Shown here in pieces: positions 8,718-54,132 of a stretch of 64,000 nt of DNA. Under the pieces are notes generated by a model. It saw only the letters and a list, made by a program, of their open reading frames with translations. It did not search any database and was not told where the DNA came from. The stretch's first letter is position 1. Every line of letters starts with the position of its first letter. Origin of the DNA: an uncultured Methanosarcinaceae archaeon (GTDB lineage Archaea > Halobacteriota > Methanosarcinia > Methanosarcinales > Methanosarcinaceae); contig CAWHXP010000020.1 in NCBI GenBank assembly GCA_963833425.1, positions 63,388 through 127,387 on the forward strand. Direction: 5' to 3'. The position numbers and the translations under genes were made by a program.

Positions 8718-8752
8718 ATTCAGAAATTTTAACACAAAAGAAAATTATGCAT
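8718..8752 (-). repeat. degenerate copy of the 31-bp recombination-site-like palindrome
   Basis: ATTCAGAAATTT-TAACACA-(AAAG)AAAATTATGCAT; its flanks are homologous to those of the 52165 and 52824 copies. Confidence 0.6.
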
Positions 8753-19608: not shown

Positions 19609-19639
19609 ATGAATAGTTTTTGCGCTAAAATCTTTGAAT
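19609..19639 (+). repeat. 31-bp palindromic site copy
   Basis: ATGAATAGTTTT-TGCGCTA-AAATCTTTGAAT. Confidence 0.65.
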
Positions 19640-34690: not shown

Positions 34691-34721
34691 ATGCATAGAT
34701 TTTAGCACAAAACTTATGTAT
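34691..34721 (-). repeat. 31-bp palindromic site copy
   Basis: ATGCATAGATTT-TAGCACA-AAACTTATGTAT; a one-armed copy with the same spacer lies at 35155-35185 and a degenerate one at 36636-36665. Confidence 0.75.
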
Positions 34722-35680
34722 ATCCCAGCATAAATTCTCCATTAATATTTTATTCACTAGTTCCCTAATTCTCACAAACTGGAAACTATAGAAAAATGCA
34801 TACCAATTTGTTCTTAAAACAAGTTTGTTTTTCCAGTTTAATTTGCTTTTCTGTTTATAAGTTTAATATCAAATGTTGCCCCATTTTCATGACTGTAAGG
34901 CAGGAAGCTCCCTGATTTATATATGGATACGCTACCTTGTAATCACTTGCACTTAATGTATTTTCCGCTGGTAGTGTAGACAAACATTTAAGGTGCTTAA
35001 ATCGTTGTATCTAGCTGGGTACTATTTAGTGATGTACATAAATTACGTTAGCAAGGTTTTTGTCTATTTAGCATCGCATATGTTCTAACAAAAATATGTA
35101 TTTATCCAAAACTTACATAAAAAGGTTCTATCATCCTGGCTTAAAGACTAAGTAGTTCGTCTGTTTTAGCACAGAAACTCTGCATCGAATGGAATAAAAA
35201 ATAAATTATAGCTCAACACGATCATCGACTCTGCATTTTGCTTTTTACAATTGGAGAAAAGGGCATAGAATAAGTCATATTCTCTAGAAGTTTTGGTATA
35301 CTGTCGAGTTTATCAGGGAATACAATTAAACAGTGGATCAAGTCAGTTTATGTCCCGAAAAGGTGGAAGTTCGGGTATTAAATGGTGATCTATCTGCATG
35401 AAAACACTCACTTTTAAAATATAATATTTATTTATAATCAAATAAAAAGATAAATATTTATATATATTGCTGTCGTCAAATTTCTCAGTACGTTAGATAA
35501 CTATAAATTTACCAATAAATGAGTTTTCATTTAAAAAACGAAGTTTTATAGTTCAAAAACATGCAATGAAATTTCTTCCTAAGGAAAATGTGTTAAAAAA
35601 CTCCAAGACTTGGAGTTGTATCAGATTGAACACACAGATAATATGCTCAAGTCATAATATGGAGAAACTGGAGTGATATA

Positions 35681-44704: not shown

Positions 44705-45040
44705 CTATTGCCAGCCATTCCCGTTTCCGTTTCCATTCCCGTTTCCGTTTCCTATGTTCCCGTTTCCATTCCCGTTTCCGTTTCCTACGCCGCGATTTCT
44801 ATAACCATTGCCATAGCCGTTACCTTCGCCGATGTTTCCATAACCATTGCCATATCCATTACCATGACCGTCTCCATCATGGCCTTCACCATAGCCATAG
44901 CCATAATGCCGAATGAGATGGCTGCCTATGCCATGTACGCCGCCATTGGCACTTGCAATAGCAATTGTTAATGAGAGTAATACTCCCATCACAATCAAAA
45001 GAGTCGTTGTCTCTTTCCCGTTCCTAGTTGATTCCGTCAA
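44705..45040 (-). CDS. small secreted Gly/Asn/Tyr-rich protein
   Basis: AGGAG RBS, TTG start, signal peptide, GNGYG and GNGN repeats. Confidence 0.8.
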   Translation of the reverse strand: MTESTRNGKETTTLLIVMGVLLSLTIAIASANGGVHGIGSHLIRHYGYGYGEGHDGDGHGNGYGNGYGNIGEGNGYGNGYRNRGVGNGNGNGNGNIGNGNGNGNGNGNGWQ

Positions 45041-45158
45041 TACAAACTCTCCTTAGTATACACTCGTAAGTAACGTGTGTCTTATTGTTAGTTCACTATG
45101 GGAGCTTGATGCTATCTGGTGTGCATTTACATGCAAATATAATCACAATTCTATATTT

Positions 45159-45420
45159 CTTAACATTTCCGTCCTGAAAAATAGTTTCTAAACAAAAATT
45201 CTGCTCAAAAAAAAAGTTTCGAAATTATTGAAGTTTTATCTATCTTAGTATATTCTGAACCTAACAAAATTTTCGCCGTCTAATTTATTCCTTAACATTT
45301 CCGTCTTGAAAAATACTCCTTTATCAAAAGTTTTGCTCCAAGAAAAGTGTTCGAAATTAGTGAAATTTTAACTATCTTAGTAGATTACGAAACCAGCCAA
45401 AATTTCACTGTCTAACACTA
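45159..45420. repeat. 132-bp tandem duplication upstream of the Asn-Gly operon
   Basis: CTTAACATTTCCGTCyTGAAAAATA at 45159 and 45291. Confidence 0.8.
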
Positions 45421-45621
45421 TTAAATTTATTTCATCTTGATATTGTTATATACCATGTTACTAATTGTTATTTGTCAGGTGGGTTTTTCATTGTCTTCCT
45501 ACCTGTCCCCTTAGTTTGGGTAAAACTACTGCATCAGTGACTACATATCCCCCTGGACTTAAGTTCACCTTAATCCAGGAGGATACTTTTATACAGAGTT
45601 TTTGTGGTAAAATCTATGGAA
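45389..45621 (+). repeat. ~230-bp non-coding two-hairpin unit ending in a 31-bp site (copy 1)
   Basis: Direct repeat of 47022-47255; site ATACAGAGTTTT-TGTGGTA-AAATCTATGGAA at 45591-45621. Confidence 0.85.
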
Positions 45622-46132
45622 CAAGGAAATCTAAAAATCCTGTTTTTTAATAAAAGAAAAGAATGAGAATAATCATCTTTACAGAACTTTTAATACATTA
45701 CCATTTAATCAGAATAAATAGCAAAGGAATTCATTTAATTGTTCTTTGACTGTGAAATATTTAATGCGGCATTATTTTTTTTTTAGAAACTTTTTTTCGT
45801 ATCATTAATTTAAAATAATTACGGTGGCAAAAATGAACATCACCAAGCATGTATATCATCAGCACATAAAATGATAATAGAATGTACAACACCACATCCT
45901 TTCAGAGATAAATTTAGATGATTAATTGGTAAACCGATGATTCAGTACTTATGAAGACGCGGTTATTTCAAAATCAGCATCCTTAAAATTGTATGGAATT
46001 GAATAAAAATAAGTGTATAATTAATAGGAAAACAAACATTTGATACAACAAAAAATGGGACTGAGTATTTTAATAGTAATCTTTTTTTGTAGTTATCCTT
46101 AAGCATTAAATATCTGAAAAGACACTGAGAGA

Positions 46133-46837
46133 TTGAAAATGAACGAAGTTCAATGTGATAAAGCAAGTAGAAAGCATACAATCATAACTGTTTTAGGAAT
46201 CACTGCACTGGTGCTTTTAATGCTAGTGAGTATCACAACCGCCTGGACGTCAGAATCAAAAATTTGGATCAATACAGGAAACGAGCTAAGCAACTTAAGC
46301 AAGTATAATGAAGCCATAAAAGCATATGACAAAGCAATTGAAACTGATCCCCAGTATTCAGATGCTTGGATCATGAAAGGCCTTGCTTTATTTAATTTAA
46401 ATAAGTTTGATGAAGCAATAACAGCATATGACAAATCAATTGAAATTAACCCGCAGAATTCACGGGCTTGGAACAATAAAGGGTTTGCTCTATATAACTT
46501 AAATAAATTTGATGAAGCAATAACAGCATATGACAAATCAATTGAAATTAACCCGCAGAATTCACTAGCTTGGACAAATAAGGGAGATGCTCTACTAAAA
46601 TTAAGTAAGTACAATGAAGCAATAATGGCCTATAACAAAGCACTTGAAATTAACCCGCAGAATTCAATGGCTTTGAAAGGCAAAGAAGCTTTATCTAATA
46701 CTGGACAACCGGCATCTCAAAGTACTGGCCAACCAGAGTATTGGAGTACTGGACAACCAGAATATTGGAATACTGGACAACCGGTATCTCAAAGTACTGG
46801 ACTACCAGCGTACTATAATCCAGTATTAGGGCTTTAA
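46133..46837 (+). CDS. secreted TPR protein with C-terminal TGQP repeats
   Basis: Hydrophobic leader, four TPRs, 8-aa TGQPxxxS repeats. Confidence 0.88.
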   Translation: MKMNEVQCDKASRKHTIITVLGITALVLLMLVSITTAWTSESKIWINTGNELSNLSKYNEAIKAYDKAIETDPQYSDAWIMKGLALFNLNKFDEAITAYDKSIEINPQNSRAWNNKGFALYNLNKFDEAITAYDKSIEINPQNSLAWTNKGDALLKLSKYNEAIMAYNKALEINPQNSMALKGKEALSNTGQPASQSTGQPEYWSTGQPEYWNTGQPVSQSTGLPAYYNPVLGL

Positions 46838-46979
46838 TTTAATAAATCCGGTATGGGACTTTATTTTAATCTAACAGTAACAATTTAGGTTTTTATTATT
46901 CAGTGATTTCATTAAAACATATATATTTAGCCTATATTTAGATAAGAATGCCCTTACAATTTAGATTGAAACTGAAAAA

Positions 46980-47010
46980 ATACATAGTTTTTGTGGCAAA
47001 ATATCTGCAT
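46980..47010 (+). repeat. 31-bp palindromic site copy
   Basis: ATACATAGTTTT-TGTGGCA-AAATATCTGCAT. Confidence 0.75.
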
Positions 47011-47021
47011 TTTTGGGTCAT

Positions 47022-47255
47022 GAAACCAGCCAAAGTTTCACTGCCCAACACTATCAAATTTAATTTATCTTGATACAGTTATATATTATGCCCCTGATTG
47101 TTATTTGTCAGGTGGGTTTCTCGTTGTCTCCCTACCTGCCACCATAGTTTGGGTAAAACTATTGCATCATCGGTTATATATCCCCCTGGACTAAAGTTCA
47201 CTCCATCCAGGGGGATATATCTTGATGCATAGTTTTTGTGAGAAAATCTATGTAT
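47022..47255 (+). repeat. ~230-bp non-coding two-hairpin unit ending in a 31-bp site (copy 2)
   Basis: Perfect 15-bp stem at 47176-47190/47206-47220; site ATGCATAGTTTT-TGTGAGA-AAATCTATGTAT at 47225-47255. Confidence 0.85.
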
Positions 47256-47536
47256 TATACTCATTTTTCAGCCGAACTTATGGAATATTTTACCTGATTG
47301 TGCAAAAAATAACAATTTTTTAATTAAAATATATATTACATTAGAAAGCAAAAAAGTTGCTATATTTATCTCTTTGAGGGGAAACAATGAATAAAAATTA
47401 AAAGCATATCCGAAAAGTCAAGAATAGCATGTTGGAAAAAATTATAATAGGTCTATAATATCCGAATCTCCATTCTGATTGTGCACATTGCTTATTGTAA
47501 CAACTACAGCAGATCACAAAACTTTTCGAATTGGCT

Positions 47537-47764
47537 CTAAAACAGTTCGATAAACTCTTCAGGTGTCAAGCCTGACTGCCTGATTATTGACTGCAAAGTT
47601 CCAACAGGAATTTCATTATAGTCAGGGATAATGACTATACGTGTTTCTTCCGAGGTTTTCTTTTTCATTTTGATGTGGCTGCCCTTTTGTGAAACCACCT
47701 TAAATCCCTGGCTATTGAGACCTTTTATAATCTCACGTGCTGACAGTATCGGAAGCTTTGTCAT
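47537..47764 (-). CDS. hicA: HicA family toxin
   Basis: GFKVVSQKGSHIKM...IPVGTLQSIIRQSG. Confidence 0.9.
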   Translation of the reverse strand: MTKLPILSAREIIKGLNSQGFKVVSQKGSHIKMKKKTSEETRIVIIPDYNEIPVGTLQSIIRQSGLTPEEFIELF

Positions 47765-47975
47765 GGGAAACCTCAATTATTGTGGTAAGGATCGAGCCTG
47801 CAGCAGGGATTTGAACATCTTCATCATCAAGATAAAGTTCTACAGCCTCTTTAAGGTTATCAATCGTTTTTTCAATAGTTTCCCCCTGGCTTGCCACGTC
47901 AAGTTCTGGGCACCATGATACGTACCATTTCCCTTCTTTATGGATTACTGCTGAAAACTTATAGGTCTCTTGCAT
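47733..47975 (-). CDS. hicB: HicB family antitoxin
   Basis: YVSWCPELDVASQGETIEKTIDNLKEAVELYL; overlaps hicA. Confidence 0.9.
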   Translation of the reverse strand: MQETYKFSAVIHKEGKWYVSWCPELDVASQGETIEKTIDNLKEAVELYLDDEDVQIPAAGSILTTIIEVSHDKASDTVST

Positions 47976-48078
47976 ATATGAAAAAAGGTTGTATGCGCTA
48001 TTAAAGATTTTCTCAAATACCATGTATTTTGAGAAAGTAATCATATCAGCGCTCATGGCTTACAAAACTGATATTTTA

Positions 48079-48109
48079 ATGCACAGCTTTTGCTATAAAA
48101 CCTATGCAT
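48079..48109 (+). repeat. 31-bp palindromic site copy
   Basis: ATGCACAGCTTT-TGCTATA-AAACCTATGCAT. Confidence 0.8.
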
Positions 48110-48245
48110 TCGTAAAAAAGATAAACTCCTATTTTTTGTGGCAAAGAAAGGAGTATAGAGTCGATCAGGAATTATAGAACTTTAGGTACACTGTCCTAAT
48201 TAAAAGTAGATAGCAAGCAAGTTTTTTGAATTTTGCTATGCTTTT

Positions 48246-49847
48246 TTAATATTTTTTCTGTATTCTTGAGCGTATGAAGCCACCAATTACTGTAGCAACA
48301 ATACCACATGCTACTGGAAATAATGGGTGTTTAAACATTGACTCTTCTTTAACAGTTAGTGTAAAAGCAGATGATGTGCTAGGTTTGAAGTTATTATTAC
48401 CAATATATTGGGCTGTGATTGAATGTGCGCCAACTGAAAGTGATGAAGTAGTCAAAATTGCCTGTCCAGAATTTACAGTTTCAGTTCCTATTTGTGTGTT
48501 CCCGTCTATGAAAGTAACGGTACCCGAAGGTTTTTCTGTTCTTTGTGACGTCGTATCAATTTTGGCAGTAAATGTTATTGGCTGGCCAGATATATACTCA
48601 TTAGCCGAAGAAGTTACAGCAGTTATTGTATCCAACATAGGATTCTCTATTCGAATAGGTTGTAGTTCTAAATCAGACTGATTTAGAATCATTAGTGTTA
48701 AAATAGATGATGTGCTGGGTTTGAAATTATTATCACCGATGTATTTGGCTGTAATTGAATGTGCACCAACTAAAAGTGATGAAGTAGTCAAAATTGCCTG
48801 TCCAGAATTTACAGTTTCAGTTCCTATTTGCGTGTTCCCATCTAGGAAAGTAACGGTTCCAGAAGGCTTTTTCACTCCTTGTGACGGCGTGCCAATTTTA
48901 GCAGTAAATGTAATTGGCTGACCAAATGTAGATTTATTGGTTGGTGAAGTTAACTCAGTCATTGTATCTACAAGATTCTCTACGTAAATAGGTTGTGGAT
49001 CTATACCAGGCTGATTTATTGTTAGTGTAAAAGCAGATGATGTGCTAGGTTTGAAGTTATTATCACCGATGTATTTGGCTGTAATCGAATGTGAGCCAGC
49101 TGAAAGTGATGAAGTAGTCAAAATTGCCTGTCCAGAATTTACAGTTTCAGTTCCTATTTGCACGTTCCCGTCTGTGAAAGTAACGGTACCTGAAGGCTTT
49201 TCTGTTTCTTGTGAGGTCGTATCAATTTTAGCGGTAAATGTTATTGTCTGGCCAAATGTATATTGATTTGCCGAACAAGTTAATTCAGTCATTGTATCGA
49301 ACTTAGATTCTATATTAGATAAACCACTTTTGCCTTTCAAGGCTATTGAATCTTGTGGGTTAATTTCAAGTGCTCTGTCATATGCTTTTATGGCTTCATC
49401 TGATTTCCCTAATTTACTTAAAGCTAAGCCTTTGCCGTCCAAAGCTATGGAATCTTGCGGGTTAATTTCAAGTGCTTTGTCAAACGCTTCTAGTGCTTCA
49501 TTATGTTTGTTCAATGCAACGAGAGCAACCCCGTTACGATCCAAAACTTCTGAACCCTGTGGGTTAATGTTAATTACTCTTTGATCTGGAGAAAGTGGGG
49601 AAGTAGCCATAAAATGGCCATGTGCAATAGGGTACTGTCCTACTTTTACTTTGCTTGTAAATGTATTAGTTGCTGTGTCAATTACAGGGACAGTTTCATC
49701 TTTTAAGTTTGTAACGTATGCATATTGCGGTGCAGGTGAGTTACTTTGTGCAGTAACTACAGATACCATGGACATAATGATCATTAAAAATAAAAAATGG
49801 ATTATTAAAACTGAATAAATTAGAAATGATTTTTCCGATTTTTTCAT
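48246..49847 (-). CDS. surface protein: YVTN blade, TPRs, three Ig-like domains, C-terminal membrane anchor
   Basis: YAYVTN; EAIKAYDRALEINP; three GQxITFTA...GTVTF...HSITAxYxG repeats. Confidence 0.9.
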   Translation of the reverse strand: MKKSEKSFLIYSVLIIHFLFLMIIMSMVSVVTAQSNSPAPQYAYVTNLKDETVPVIDTATNTFTSKVKVGQYPIAHGHFMATSPLSPDQRVININPQGSEVLDRNGVALVALNKHNEALEAFDKALEINPQDSIALDGKGLALSKLGKSDEAIKAYDRALEINPQDSIALKGKSGLSNIESKFDTMTELTCSANQYTFGQTITFTAKIDTTSQETEKPSGTVTFTDGNVQIGTETVNSGQAILTTSSLSAGSHSITAKYIGDNNFKPSTSSAFTLTINQPGIDPQPIYVENLVDTMTELTSPTNKSTFGQPITFTAKIGTPSQGVKKPSGTVTFLDGNTQIGTETVNSGQAILTTSSLLVGAHSITAKYIGDNNFKPSTSSILTLMILNQSDLELQPIRIENPMLDTITAVTSSANEYISGQPITFTAKIDTTSQRTEKPSGTVTFIDGNTQIGTETVNSGQAILTTSSLSVGAHSITAQYIGNNNFKPSTSSAFTLTVKEESMFKHPLFPVACGIVATVIGGFIRSRIQKKY

Positions 49848-50536
49848 TATCTCTAACCTTTTTATTATTTATATTTATAGATAAATCTCAGAATTTTCCA
49901 CCAGTTAATACGTAGAAATTAATTACGTAAAGACACGGAAAAATCAATTTGCTATTTATTATTCACTTGCTTTCCAGTATCATGGAATATAAGTAAATTA
50001 GATATAAAGGTTCACATTAGAATATAACAAAAATGCATCACAAACATAATGTATATTATGAGATTTATATAATTTTCTATTTGAATATTAAGGATATTAA
50101 ATTAAATCTTAAAATTCTTGATATAATTTAACAATGGCTTATGTAAAGACATCTTCAAGATTAATCGTTGTCTACAACTTTGTTCTGCATTTCTGTCAGC
50201 AACAGTAGTTGATGCGCTATGAACTGATTTCCCGCCGATGTCATTCCAGTTTTCACAATTATTTCTGCTATTGTTTTTCTGAAACTGTTTGCTAATTCTA
50301 AACTACTCTTCGCGCACATCTTCAAAAGAATACCATTAAATCCGGAAGACTCCACAAATGATAAAAAATCATTATTGATACTGAAATTTTTTTTGATTAT
50401 AAAAATTATCATGTGGGATTATTCTTTAAACAAAATATCTTTTTCCTATGAATATGTTATAATAAGTTGCTGCAGTTGTGAATACATTGCAGGGATCTTC
50501 TCGTGGTTGTCTTGATTCCTGCACCTATACTAAAAG

Positions 50537-50758
50537 TTAAATTTTTGTTCCAACCGGAATGACTGCAACTCCAAAAGGACCGGTTCCTACGGAAACTGTT
50601 TTTATTACTTGGTTAGTTAAAGTGTCAATTACAGAGACAGTATTGCTTCCATAGTTAGTAATATATGTATATGGCGCTGCACTTTCAATACTTGTCAGCA
50701 TTAAAATCATAGCTGCTGAAACTAAGGCTATAGAATACAACTTGTGTTTATTTACCAT
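50537..50758 (-). CDS. short secreted protein with one YVTN repeat (possible fragment)
   Basis: YITNYGSNTVSVIDT...VGTGPFGVAV. Confidence 0.7.
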   Translation of the reverse strand: MVNKHKLYSIALVSAAMILMLTSIESAAPYTYITNYGSNTVSVIDTLTNQVIKTVSVGTGPFGVAVIPVGTKI

Positions 50759-50994
50759 TTATTTTACCCTTCTGGAAAGCAATACATATGGGAGTTAAAT
50801 TATTAATAGAAATATTTAACAATTAATAGTCACTTAGAACTATAAAAACGTATTTAAAAATGTAAAAGCAAATGTTAAATTTAAAAGAATATCTGTAGAA
50901 AGCAATTATTTAATGCAGTCATTTTGATAAAAACTATTTATCATTCTCTAAATTCGACTCAAAATATCCTATAATTCCAGCTGAAACTGAGAAA

Positions 50995-51025
50995 ATGCAT
51001 AGGTTTAGATACAAAAACTATGCAT
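50995..51025 (-). repeat. 31-bp palindromic site copy
   Basis: ATGCATAGGTTT-AGATACA-AAAACTATGCAT. Confidence 0.8.
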
Positions 51026-51466
51026 TTGATGAAGGCATGAGTATTATTCCTAAATTATAATATACATAATTTGTATTTAATTATTGTTCAGTGTTAAAAC
51101 ATTCCATTTGGAAATACTTTTTGTTTAGAAACTATTTTTTTTATAAATACATATACATAATAAATCAGAGTGATGTTACATACCAGTCAAAAACAGAGTT
51201 TATTGAATCTCTCTAATAAATTAATTAACTAAGATAAAATCAAAAGCTTATGATGTGGATTATAGATCTGTGTGAGAATGAAAAATATACCCAGTTCAAC
51301 AACATTTGATACCTTCTCCGTTAATATTAAAAACATTTTATTCAATAAACTCTAGTTTTTGGCTGGCTATTCAATAGATTATATAAAATATATTTAGTTA
51401 ACAATGATTCACAGCAGATATGATCTAAATTTTTGTGTTGTGAATTTGATAAAAGGAGTGAAATAA

Positions 51467-51841
51467 ATGTTAAAACAATCACCTAGTAAAATGAAAAAGA
51501 TACTGGCTGTTCTGCTGGCAGTTCTTTTCGTAGTATCCTTGACAGCAGTGTCAGCTAGTGCATTCCAACGCCATAATATGGGCGGTGGTATGGGCATGCG
51601 TGGCGGTTTTGGTCACCACGGTTTTGGCGGCGGTTTCGGTGGTGGCTGGGGCGGTGGTTGGGGCTGGCCTGGCTGGGGCTGGGGCTGGCCTTACATGGGT
51701 TATGGCTATCCAGGCATGGGTTATGGGTATCAACAACCCATGGAACAACCCATGATGCAACAAGAACAACCAGTTGTTAAAGAAGTTGTCAAAGAAGTTG
51801 TTTGCTGCCCACCGAATTCTGTAAAAAAATATGTTAAGTAA
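51467..51841 (+). CDS. secreted Gly/Trp-rich low-complexity protein
   Basis: AGGAGTG RBS; MLKQ...KKIL signal; GGGW/GWP repeats. Confidence 0.8.
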   Translation: MLKQSPSKMKKILAVLLAVLFVVSLTAVSASAFQRHNMGGGMGMRGGFGHHGFGGGFGGGWGGGWGWPGWGWGWPYMGYGYPGMGYGYQQPMEQPMMQQEQPVVKEVVKEVVCCPPNSVKKYVK

Positions 51842-52164
51842 TGAGTGGTAAAAGTAGATTCAATTTTGGAAATAATCAATTAAAAATTTATAAATACTGA
51901 AGAGAATTTTAAATAAATCTCAGTTTAGGGGTTGTGCTTTATAAAACCTACATAAGCAATTTATTACAAATCGGAGATTTATTGAATTCTCTATATTTTA
52001 GTTTTGTTTAGAGCTCTATACAATTATTTTTCTGATATCTTCTTTTTAGGATTGTAGTTTATATTAGTTCCAGATGTTCCATAAGCTCCATCTGTTCTAT
52101 AAGTCCCATAAGCTTCAAGAAGTAACAGAACTTCAATTTTTTTATTCCAAAAAGAGCTTAGGAA

Positions 52165-52195
52165 ATCCATAGATTTAATCACAAAAACTATGCAT
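52165..52195 (-). repeat. 31-bp palindromic site copy
   Basis: ATCCATAGATTT-AATCACA-AAAACTATGCAT. Confidence 0.8.
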
Positions 52196-52252
52196 GAAAA
52201 AGTAGAAAATAGTGAGAATTTGGATAAATCTAAATTTCAGGAAGAGCCCCCA

Positions 52253-52471
52253 TCATTTTATTGAGCCTGGGACACCTGAATTTCCGTAACCGTCATCAAG
52301 GCCATCGTTACCGACACCGTTATTGAAGCCGAAGTTACCGTAACCGTTATCGTGCGCGCCACCGTTTGCCGGGGTGACTGTGGGGGCACTGTGTCCACTG
52401 TGGCTACTAGCGACAGCTATTGTTGTTGTAGCTAAAGAAACTACAAAATAAGCTGTTATCAAAATTACCAT
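52253..52471 (-). CDS. small secreted protein with GNxG repeats
   Basis: Signal peptide, SSHSGHS, then NGYGNFGFNNGVGNDG. Confidence 0.65.
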   Translation of the reverse strand: MVILITAYFVVSLATTTIAVASSHSGHSAPTVTPANGGAHDNGYGNFGFNNGVGNDGLDDGYGNSGVPGSIK

Positions 52472-52823
52472 TGTCCTTTTAAATCCAATTTATATTACAC
52501 CTCATTCTTTATATTGGAACTGATTTCTAATCTACTTAGAATTGTATATAAAGCCCAATTTTTAGTTTTTTGCCATAAAACAAATTTCTCTTCAATTACC
52601 CAGTATATTCACATATCTTACCGATCAGCCCCTACTTTTAAACTCTTTAACTCTTTGTCTGGTAGCTTTAAGCTACAAAGTAAAATATTATTCACAACAT
52701 TATTTTAAATAAACTGTCAAAAAAATAGTTTCGGAATACAATTAATTTCCCTATAAAATATTTTAACATCAAACAATATTTTTATATTAATGTTATTTAT
52801 AATAATTTTATTTGGTCTTATTG

Positions 52824-52854
52824 ATGCATAGGTTTTATAGCAGAAACTATGCAT
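52824..52854 (-). repeat. 31-bp palindromic site copy
   Basis: ATGCATAGGTTT-TATAGCA-GAAACTATGCAT. Confidence 0.8.
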
Positions 52855-52874
52855 CTGATGTTAGTTGATGCCTT

Positions 52875-53110
52875 TTATTTTTCTATTAATATGAACTTCA
52901 TAGTGAATTTCATCCTATTGTCCCTTTTCAAGTCAAGTTCCCATCTAATTGATCTACACGGGTGCTACCAGCCGAAATCCAAGACGATTAAGATCTTCAA
53001 TTTCAAAGTTATCTGGAATACTCACTCCGTTATCTGAGACCTTCAAGGTAAAACTGGTGTTCTTAAAACCATCTTTTTTGTTTTCTTCTCATGAAGAATG
53101 AGTTTATTCA
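52875..53110 (-). pseudogene. histidine kinase HATPase C-terminal remnant, paralog of the 8774 kinase
   Basis: SFTLKVSDNGVSIPDNFEIEDLNRLGF...MKFILIEK*; DNA is homologous to 8774-9010. Confidence 0.8.
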
Positions 53111-53478
53111 GTACTAAAAAGATATTCAAAACAGGGAACTCTCTTGTCGTCGTTGTTCACAGAGTTAATCTGAAGGTATCATTTACAGCTTTTTGTTAGA
53201 ATCACTATCAATTGATGACATCGAAAATAAATTGAATATTTTACGGCTAGAGGAAACTATATTTGAAATCAAAGAATAATAAATCAGAAACGAAAAAATC
53301 GGATCAAATATAGGAATTGGTGAGAAAGATTTAAACAAAATTCTCACGAAGAAAAAAATAAGAGGTAAATTGAAATCCCCTTTATGCTCTACACATTTAA
53401 AGCTTTGAAGATAGATACTATAAATCAACATAGATTATCTTTCAATTAAATCCAGTTCAATATGGGGTTGATGAAAGG

Positions 53479-54132
53479 ATGGCACTTTTTAAAGATAGGC
53501 TAGATGCTGGTAGAAAACTAGCAAAAAAACTTTCAAAATATGCAAACCGCTCAGATATACTTGTACTTGGACTTCCGAGGGGTGGAGTTCCTGTAGCTTT
53601 TGAAGTTGCAAAGGAACTGAATGTAAAAATGGACGTTTTTGTAGTAAGGAAATTAGGTGTTCCAGGAAATGAAGAGTTGGCAATGGGAGCGATTGCTTCT
53701 GACAATATTATTGTGCTGAACGAAGATATAGTGAGATCTTTCCATATATCTAAACAGGTAATTGACGCTGTAGCTGCTAGAGAACTTAGGGAATTAGAAC
53801 GTAGGGAACGTATTTACCGAGGTAAACGTCCAAAACCAAGTATAAGTGGTTCAACAGTAATTTTGATAGATGATGGGCTTGCAACGGGTGCAACAATGAG
53901 CGCAGCTGCTTCAGCTATTAAAACTAAAAATCCGACTAAAATAGTTATTGCAGTTCCAACTGGTGCACCGGATACTTGCAGGTCTTTTGAAGGAAAGGTA
54001 GATGAAATTATATGTGTTTCTACTCCGGAACCTTTCTATAGTGTAGGGGCTTGGTACGAAGACTTCGGGCAAACTACCGATGAAGAGGTTTGTGAATTAC
54101 TGGACAAAGCTACAGATTTTCAATCGAAGTAA
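53479..54132 (+). CDS. phosphoribosyltransferase family protein
   Basis: FKDRLDAG, GLPRGGVPVA, ILIDDGLATGAT. Confidence 0.9.
   Translation: MALFKDRLDAGRKLAKKLSKYANRSDILVLGLPRGGVPVAFEVAKELNVKMDVFVVRKLGVPGNEELAMGAIASDNIIVLNEDIVRSFHISKQVIDAVAARELRELERRERIYRGKRPKPSISGSTVILIDDGLATGATMSAAASAIKTKNPTKIVIAVPTGAPDTCRSFEGKVDEIICVSTPEPFYSVGAWYEDFGQTTDEEVCELLDKATDFQSK

Follow-up and report, generated by a model that had tools for sequence, protein, structure and literature searches.

We analyzed a 64,000-nt stretch of DNA from an uncultured Methanosarcinaceae archaeon (assembly GCA_963833425.1, contig CAWHXP010000020.1, positions 63,388 to 127,387; hereafter the window), in which a 31-bp palindromic element recurs between small groups of genes. 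We consider it probable that these elements are core sites of the lox/FRT type bounding shuffled gene modules, and that the likely enzyme is a tyrosine recombinase of ~200 amino acids (aa) acting in trans. An earlier reading of the letters alone (the sequence-only reading) had proposed tyrosine-recombinase core sites around modules that a trans-acting recombinase shuffles, and the proposal gains support from the sharing of flanks between sites, from co-oriented arrays of sites and from palindromes found at recombinase genes.

Directional 31-bp sites in the window and across the genome

The window corresponds to G000:C20:63388-127387, where G000 denotes the genome assembly that contains it (4.07 Mb, 21 contigs, 35.8% G+C, 80% complete). 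The names of homologous proteins in public sources assign it to Methanosarcina. The element consists of two 12-bp arms around a 7-bp spacer. We searched the window with the pattern ATGCATAGTTT-N8-AAANCTATGCAT, allowing up to three mismatches, and with 100 dinucleotide-preserving shuffles of the window as control. Matches were obtained at 46980, 47225, 48079, 50995, 52165 and 52824, as well as at 19609 and 34691, whereas none of the 100 shuffles matched. With the copy at 45591, which has four mismatches, all seven copies of the array first noticed by eye were found, as were the two further copies reported outside it. Orientation by an iteratively refined position weight matrix (PWM) gives the same order, + + + + - - -, as had been read from the sequence. 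The sites are as follows.

45591..45621, + strand: 31-bp site, weakest copy, 4 mismatches (PWM orientation)
46980..47010, + strand: 31-bp site, 3 mismatches (PWM orientation)
47225..47255, + strand: 31-bp site, 1 mismatch (PWM orientation)
48079..48109, + strand: 31-bp site, 22 bp upstream of a hicB-like start (pattern match)
50995..51025, - strand: 31-bp site, 0 mismatches on the - strand (PWM orientation)
52165..52195, - strand: 31-bp site, 1 mismatch (PWM orientation)
52824..52854, - strand: 31-bp site at a synteny boundary with genome G031 (pattern match)
19609..19639, + strand: further copy, 3 mismatches
34691..34721, strand ambiguous: further copy, 3 mismatches on either strand

Four degenerate copies had also been listed. 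Those at 8718 and 14184 are real, with spacers 4 bp longer, while at 35155 and 36636 hardly more than a half-site is present. The statement that the spacer always begins with TG describes the seven window copies correctly and does not extend to the genome, where T occupies position 13 in 89% of sites and G position 14 in 71%: genome-wide, the TG start is a tendency and no rule.

The family, first described as a feature of a 7-kb stretch, is genome-wide. At up to four mismatches G000 contains 129 site loci (2, 17, 33, 38 and 39 loci with 0, 1, 2, 3 and 4 mismatches, respectively), and the reversed pattern yields no locus in the same genome at the same threshold. A further 64 exact half-sites lie outside the 129 loci, and most of the 40 that were inspected turn out to be complete sites in which the spacer is 1-3 bp too long or too short. 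G000 thus has at least 129 sites, and the arms are not terminal repeats that stand apart. Had the arms been the termini of an insertion sequence or a MITE (miniature inverted-repeat transposable element), they should have been found apart; in G000 they are always adjacent. Conservation is limited to the 31 bp, with an information content of at most 0.4 bit outside them. Altered spacer lengths accompany T/A tracts in sites such as G000:C2:93781, C3:600562 and C5:44747, and could reflect slippage that inactivates or retunes sites.

Sites are mostly intergenic and clustered. By a crude caller of open reading frames (ORFs; minimum length 70 aa, accounting for only 52% of the genome), 123 of the 129 sites lie outside called ORFs. 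Among the 122 classifiable intergenic sites, 41 lie between convergent, 58 between tandem and 23 between divergent genes, and distances from site to gene run from 7 bp to more than 2000 bp, so the fixed spacing expected of an operator is not seen. Another site lies within 5 kb for 93 of 129 sites, against 27% expected under a uniform spread, and contig C10 alone carries 30 sites.

The PWM of the 129 sites shows the 12-7-12 layout with an asymmetric center. As had been claimed, the two arms can be told apart and each site has a direction: 116 of 129 sites were oriented with confidence (at least 3 bits). Confident neighbors no more than 5 kb apart point in the same direction in 49 cases and in opposite directions in 9 (p 9e-8), forming runs of up to 9 sites. 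The 49 modules between co-oriented neighbors have a median length of 1342 bp; 26 contain one called gene, 11 contain two and 6 contain none. Within modules, gene strand is independent of site direction (31 same, 39 opposite). With cassette genes on both strands, every gene needs a promoter of its own.

Although the element is a palindrome, the two arms vary independently. In 90 sites, mirrored variable positions form Watson-Crick pairs as often as expected by chance (positions 3/29, 47 versus 51.4 expected; positions 6/26, 38 versus 40.3), and positions 9/23 are mostly non-complementary. This independence argues against hairpins of the attC, repetitive extragenic palindrome (REP) or terminator type, and it points to recognition of each half-site on double-stranded DNA and not of a hairpin. 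An RNA or single-strand hairpin was ruled out by the same absence of co-variation. A short peptide encoded across the site (MELRKC...) was ruled out by eye, with frames differing between copies. A shufflon of the Rci/sfx kind, which has inverted sites within alternative 3' ends of a single gene, does not fit either, with 123 of 129 sites outside ORFs and orientation mostly direct.

The flanks of many sites, including window positions 48110-48150, belong to recurrent families of ~40 bp found on either side (e.g. ...AAAAAGGATCTTTTTGGTTTCACTG). They hold T-runs and a motif like the site center (TTTTTGTGGCAAA), and could be accessory protein-binding or terminator elements.

Public sequencing data were also consulted. 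Among the runs listed, only seven DNA runs contain 5-9% of the words searched for, and none is an RNA run. Contigs from four sequencing runs diverge at the site edges 47256, 48079, 48109, 51025 and 52195. This divergence counts neither way, because any repeat has the same effect and contigs cannot show variation within a population.

Sites as joints of rearrangement

We compared 60-bp flanks in register for all pairs of 128 sites, taking at least 75% identity as similar. Of 46 flank-similar pairs, 45 are similar in one flank only (with the other flank below 45% identity in 40 of them) and a single pair is similar in both. In the 25 best pairs, identity is ~0.9-1.0 across the shared flank and the near arm, including 0.84 and 0.92 at the variable positions 3 and 6. 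It spans 0.56-0.96 at spacer positions 14-18, drops to background at positions 26 and 29 of the far arm (0.60 and 0.48) and is 0.2-0.5 past the site. The profile of oriented sites is alike but noisy (8 and 15 non-independent pairs).

Extended outward, the homology of the shared flank has a median length of 465 bp (28 pairs). In 9 of these 28 pairs it ends within 60 bp of the center of another site in at least one copy (within 22 bp in 8 of them), and in 4 pairs it does so in both copies. Those four pairs make up two modules. Module A (C8:15301-16704 and C10:29219-30625) is 97.2% identical over 1413 bp, and module B (C8:16674-17641 and C10:118130-119096) is 96.6% identical over 972 bp. The alignments of both modules halt at the bounding sites even with 600 bp added on each side. 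The two modules are neighbors on C8 and lie 88 kb apart on C10.

The site between the two modules on C8 is itself informative. At C8:16674, informative positions 3 and 9 match C10:30595, the site at the end of module A, whereas positions 15, 26 and 29 match C10:118130, at the start of module B. This makes it a hybrid site with a switch between positions 9 and 15, which would be the footprint expected of strand exchange at the border of the spacer. The comparisons C8:15301 / C10:29219 and C8:17611 / C10:119066 / C10:41082 switch at the opposite arm.

Other genomes and loci give similar boundaries. Homology to module A in G044 and G048 begins at the first base of site C8:15301, and homology to module B in G044 stops at the last bases of site C8:17611. 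Synteny with G031, the closest relative (92% identity), begins at window position 52822, at site 52824. For the hicBA paralogs at C2:189079 and C3:547515, homology ends at the outer edge of site 48079. Taken together, these alignments show that the sites are joints of rearrangement between paralogous loci. The enrichment of breakpoints at sites that the sequence-only reading called for is seen both in the 45 one-flank pairs, against one both-flank pair, and in the two site-to-site modules.

A small tyrosine recombinase with site-like palindromes at its own gene

The window encodes no tyrosine recombinase, as had been noted; the contig's nearest PF00589 match lies at C20:39712, whereas the first base of the window is C20:63388. 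A candidate came from genome G012, where a 215-aa ORF (P0001) matches Phage_integrase weakly and begins 92 bp from a site; a second palindrome, 29 bp long and sharing the arms of the first, precedes the gene by 10 bp. G000 carries one intact ortholog (C6:91890-92507, 202 aa, 76-77% identity) that matches PF00589 at 37.3 bits, above the cut-off, and has its proximal palindrome 23 bp before the likely ATG. P0001-type genes are preceded by a site-type palindrome at ~90-125 bp and by a 29-bp variant at 8-40 bp. All six loci of the clade of G000 have the proximal palindrome 22-23 bp before the ATG (22 bp in the five closest public orthologs), over a TATA-like center.

We scored palindromes with 11-nt arms, at most one mismatch and both TTT and AAA present within 330 bp upstream of family genes whose N-terminus is present. 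Such a palindrome occurs in 27 of 49 family loci and in 15 of 230 control windows from the same loci (odds ratio 17.6). Its outer arms change with the subfamily: ATGCAYAGG in the groups of 75-82% and 59-60% identity, TATCAGG at 63%, CAGTAG at 53-54% and several others at 45-50%, while a TTTT-N-AAAA core is kept across the palindromes of all subfamilies. In G017, the palindrome of the G017 type was found only at the recombinase gene itself, with no dispersed copies. The candidate for the site-linked tyrosine recombinase that had been asked for is a small family with matching palindromes at its own genes.

By its conserved residues and predicted fold, the candidate is a member of the tyrosine-recombinase superfamily. 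Residues R56, K86/K88, K143-x-x-R146, H169 and Y178 are invariant in 29 of 29 sequences, and the enzyme looks active as judged from these residues and the structural model. The AlphaFold2 model has a pLDDT (predicted local distance difference test) of 89.5. Foldseek matches its catalytic fold to archaeal XerA (4a8e, 5hxy) and to phage and transposon integrases, with a template-modeling (TM) score of ~0.6, 15-18% identity and probability 1.00. A sequence search of the PDB with the recombinase gave nothing meaningful. At 202 aa, compared with 266-280 aa for XerA chains, it is a recombinase without most of the N-terminal core-binding domain. XerA itself, which had been suggested as the recombinase, is probably not the enzyme. 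The ~200-aa candidate on C6 is not an XerA, as it scores 19.4 bits on the XerA/integron-integrase model NF040815, against a cut-off of 220.

Public records name the Methanosarcina homologs 'site-specific integrase' or 'tyrosine-type recombinase', and the protein family also occurs in Methanococcoides, Methanolobus and Methanomethylovorans. Isolates are among the sources of orthologs with 77-78% identity. No conserved gene partner was found in 12 recombinase loci. Disrupted copies of the gene are found at 42 bp from a site in G014, at ~1 kb and 3 kb from sites in G004 and at 3.7 kb from one in G002.

G000 also has a set of larger recombinase genes. Near-identical genes for a tyrosine recombinase of 350-392 aa lie near the ends of contigs C1, C6, C7, C18 and C21, and also at C8:240840, none of them near a 31-bp site; their placement suggests a multi-copy mobile element that breaks the assembly.

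Distribution of sites and recombinase among genomes

We surveyed related genomes with a degenerate pattern at up to two mismatches. By this measure G000 has 84 sites and 12 of 18 other genomes of the genus have 1-11, while 12 genomes from other genera of the order have none, and the reversed control is zero everywhere. Four close relatives of G000 have 42, 72, 79 and 31 sites, which makes the expansion a feature of the clade. Low-copy species have a more symmetric site (ATGCAYAGGTTTTAYAATAAAACCTRTGCAT).

One intact ortholog of the recombinase is present in all five genomes with 31-84 sites. Of 23 genomes of the genus that were scored, 17 have both sites and recombinase, 5 have neither, none has sites only, and one, G013, has only the recombinase, with palindromes of other arms. 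Both features are absent from all 12 genomes outside the genus. Because the genomes are related, this co-occurrence is not a statistical test. The expansion from 0-11 to 31-84 copies per genome possibly followed from decay of the recombinase gene's distal palindrome, a putative autoregulatory site.

Proposed mechanism and points against it

If the sites work as we propose, each would present two inverted ~12-bp arms, with one recombinase monomer per arm, around a 7-bp asymmetric spacer that gives the site its direction. Recombinase dimers would bind both arms and two sites would synapse. Recombination between two direct sites would release the module between them as a one-site circle, which could recombine with any compatible site and be reinserted. 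Repeated excision and reinsertion would produce co-oriented arrays and hybrid junction sites, direct orientation being the product expected from successive insertion of one-site circles. Inverted neighbors, such as those at the + + + + / - - - switch in the window, would allow inversion. Modules, mostly of one or two genes, would carry their own promoters. The recombinase, encoded once in G000 on contig C6, would act in trans, and its proximal palindrome over the TATA-like center would allow autorepression; from this placement the gene is probably autoregulated through that palindrome. Binding, strand exchange, circular intermediates, action in trans and a need for identical spacers are all steps that we infer from sequence patterns.

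A number of observations weigh against this scheme. The proposed recombination is read from sequence footprints, and no event was seen directly. Many shared flanks are short, as the median of 465 bp indicates, and in 19 of 28 pairs the homology ends at no site. Only one of three synteny breakpoints with G031 falls exactly at a site, and one junction in that genome joins the Ig-domain module to other DNA without any site. A further module, X (C10:13.4-15.1 kb and G031:C104:4.4-6.5 kb), is common to the two genomes in its coding part only and has no precise site-to-site bounds, and the hicBA copies have only the gene pair and one site in common. Part of the cargo is housekeeping-like, for example ThiC.

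Spacers and enzyme raise difficulties of their own. The commonest spacer, TGCTATA, occurs in 27 of 129 sites and the rest are scattered. Classical tyrosine recombinases need identical spacers, so most pairs of sites might not recombine; the diversity of spacers may split the sites into compatibility classes. The reading of 12-bp arms is hard to explain for an enzyme with so reduced a core-binding domain. In G000 the recombinase gene lies at least 33 kb from any site on contig C6, and the distal upstream palindrome is degenerate throughout the clade of G000. For G001, G002, G003, G005, G006 and G016, the closest homolog shows only 40-50% identity, is incomplete or is disrupted by stops, although G001 has 11 sites and G005 has 9, and the homologs in G001, G005 and G016 have upstream palindromes with different arms. 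Some of these six assemblies are only 75-92% complete. Their sites are either CALIN-like (clusters of attC sites lacking an integron-integrase) orphaned arrays, or belong to a gene that the assembly missed, or are served by another enzyme.

Alternative explanations

The same sites could be recombined by a different tyrosine recombinase, either XerA as on dif, in an analog of pdif modules, or an integrase of 380-411 aa. G000 has 15 PF00589 matches to choose from, the gene for a 411-aa integrase (C10:102770-103618) lies ~400 bp from site C10:104023, and the six site-bearing genomes just named have no close, intact ortholog of the small recombinase. We nevertheless regard this explanation as improbable. 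The best protein of G000 reaches 121.8 bits, against the XerA cut-off of 220 (in an assembly that is 80% complete), and of four 407-411-aa paralogs only the copy on C10 is near a site. The direct orientation of sites is unlike the alternation of pdif, and matching palindromes at the gene itself belong to the small recombinase family only.

Two further readings dispense with recombination at the sites by a dedicated enzyme. A dispersed passive repeat, akin to REP or MITE sequences or to a terminator, might provide 31 bp of identity for occasional homologous recombination. G000 has an abundance of other repeat families, the T-runs of both strands could aid transcription termination, and a homologous crossover would also yield hybrid sites. 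Yet the arms lack the co-variation that a hairpin constraint as in REP or attC would impose, they are always adjacent, with few true solo half-sites, and are not separated terminal repeats, and a passive repeat leaves unexplained the genus-wide conservation, the co-orientation of arrays and the link to a recombinase gene; we hold it to be quite improbable. Very improbable, in our view, is that the sites serve as operators for a DNA-binding regulator, perhaps the recombinase-like protein in the role of a repressor, so that they mark a regulon of accessory genes and bound modules only incidentally. A proximal palindrome on the TATA-like center 22-23 bp before the recombinase start is operator-like, the 1-11 sites of most species are a number typical of a regulon, and site 48079 is only 22 bp from the hicB-like start. 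However, convergent genes, between which a promoter would not be expected, flank 41 of the 122 classifiable intergenic sites, the distance to a gene varies between 7 bp and more than 2000 bp, and site direction follows the neighboring sites (49 versus 9) and not the genes (31 versus 39). The hybrid site and the site-to-site modules have no regulatory explanation, and the catalytic residues are invariant.

Comparison with known systems

With sedentary integrons and CALINs, the proposed core sites and their modules share long co-oriented arrays of sites, modules of one or two genes, cargo of toxin-antitoxin genes and genes of unknown function, and hybrid junctions; as in CALINs, the arrays lie far from any integrase gene. 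They differ in that the sites are simple 31-bp palindromes without a sign of single-strand folding, compared with attC sites, imperfect palindromes of 55-141 bp that recombine as folded single strands, and in that the recombinase has 202 aa and is not an XerC/D-like IntI with an extra segment, as its score on NF040815 also indicates. No integrase gene, attI or Pc platform stands at the head of the arrays, and genes occur on both strands, whereas integron cassettes are mostly promoterless and co-oriented with the array. The system agrees with integrons in the orientation of its array, and departs from them in enzyme, type of site, platform and cassette orientation.

Modules bounded by pdif sites occur on Acinetobacter plasmids and have XerC/XerD sites of an 11-6-11 layout whose orientation alternates around each module. 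There too, short arm-spacer-arm sites bound accessory modules that include toxin-antitoxin genes, and the recombinase is encoded elsewhere. Here, in contrast, sites are direct (49 versus 9), have a 12-7-12 layout and lie on archaeal chromosomal contigs, not plasmids. Site orientation thus separates the system from pdif modules; of the two parallels drawn by the sequence-only reading, pdif modules and sedentary integron arrays, the direct pattern follows the integron one.

Among simpler systems, Cre/loxP and Flp/FRT have no more than one or two sites on a replicon, with one fixed spacer. They resemble the sites described here in their inverted arms of ~12-13 bp, an asymmetric 7-8-bp spacer that sets orientation and a switch at the spacer borders, and differ from a genome with more than 129 sites and many spacers and from an enzyme that is much smaller and unrelated at family level. 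Archaeal XerA/dif offers a palindromic site and, in XerA (4a8e, 5hxy), the best structural match for the catalytic domain; XerA, however, has 266-280 residues with a core-binding domain, and there is one dif site per chromosome. FimB and FimE are minimal tyrosine recombinases that invert one promoter segment beside their own genes. The candidate is like them in having ~200 aa, essentially a catalytic domain, and unlike them in that no local invertible segment was seen beside it. By analogy, the system would work in the manner of an integron or CALIN and is a member of neither integrons nor pdif modules.

We put forward more tentatively, as a proposal with slightly less than an even chance of being right, that Methanosarcina, and probably other Methanosarcinaceae, have an archaeal counterpart of integrons, in which a minimal ~200-aa recombinase acting in trans on lox-like sites would capture, excise and reshuffle modules with their own promoters, among them toxin-antitoxin, defense-like and surface or secreted protein genes. 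Among the major routes by which bacteria adapt rapidly are gene-cassette systems driven by site-specific recombination. To our knowledge, the only archaeal gene-cassette systems reported are classical integrons in a few metagenome-assembled genomes. We found no account of a system like the present one in literature searches on Methanosarcina. The passages on the topic in a review of archaeal tyrosine recombinases (PMC8371274) include no such system, the portions consulted of PMC4158269 describe none, and the passages on the topic in PMC6749651 are irrelevant to one; the archaeal integron paper has 0 occurrences of Methanosarcina.

If the proposal is true, a well-studied, genetically tractable genus of methanogens has a simpler cassette system made of a minimal recombinase and a 31-bp site. 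Such a system would help to explain the patchy accessory islands of Methanosarcina, with their toxin-antitoxin, defense and surface-protein genes. It would provide a natural lox-like pair of recombinase and site for archaeal genetics, as well as a test case of site reading by a tyrosine recombinase whose core-binding domain is almost absent.

Contents of the modules

The site-bounded units of the window are as described by the sequence-only reading, with Pfam assignments for the TPR gene, HicA and the Big_3_5/TPR protein, next to the hairpin unit and the small Gly-rich ORFs.

46133..46837, + strand: TPR-repeat protein, 234-aa ORF, module cargo (TPR_1, E 1.4e-45)
47011..47224, no strand assigned: non-coding module between two sites, structured unit of ~200 bp (fold z -4.8 / -5.2)
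47537..48056, - strand: hicBA-type toxin-antitoxin pair, module cargo (HicA_toxin, E 2.5e-16)
48246..50758, - strand: 533-aa Big_3_5/TPR protein with two small ORFs of 83 and 73 aa, module cargo (no Pfam match for the small ORFs)
51467..51841, + strand: 124-aa Gly/Trp-rich ORF, module cargo (no Pfam match)
52253..52471, - strand: 72-aa Gly/Asn-rich ORF, module cargo (no Pfam match)

Within the toxin-antitoxin pair, HicA occupies 47537-47776 and the upstream partner ORF, 47733-48056, has no Pfam match. The non-coding unit at 47011-47224 folds strongly on both strands (z -4.8 and -5.2), has a terminal G+C-rich hairpin of 15 bp and is present in a second copy at 45389-45618 (82.8% identity). Rfam gave no match for the whole window at the gathering threshold, nor for 45000-53500 at E up to 1, which leaves the sites and the hairpin unit without a known RNA family as explanation.

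Of 67 cargo proteins, 36 have no Pfam match. The others include TPR proteins, HicA, a nucleotidyltransferase/HepT pair, pentapeptide-repeat proteins, nucleoside-deoxyribosyltransferase/TIR-like proteins, HD-CE, a GDSL lipase, a radical-SAM enzyme, ThiC, an ABC transporter pair and two transposases. The idea that the cassettes encode surface and secreted proteins is thus too narrow, since toxin-antitoxin pairs, defense-like genes, enzymes and the two transposases are also carried. In other species the few sites adjoin ParE, nucleotidyltransferase/HepT pairs and a SIR2-like gene.

Other repeats in the window and elsewhere in the genome

Two adjacent copies of a 130-bp unit (45154-45283 and 45286-45415, 78% identity) lie just upstream of the first site of the array. 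A repeat of ~90 bp, with dozens of copies in the genome, is found at 45733-45821 and, inverted, at 52700-52800, upstream of two genes of the window, the TPR gene and the small Gly/Asn-rich ORF; genes for secreted proteins may share it as a promoter or leader element. Another repeat of ~290 bp (53096-53384), with well over 100 genome copies at ~70% identity, overlaps an 82-aa ORF without a Pfam match and could be a small gene family or a MITE. Finally, an element of ~205 bp on C10 (L025:16743-16947) has dozens of copies with 93-96% identity in G046, G031 and G044, several of them at contig ends, and looks like a recently active MITE.

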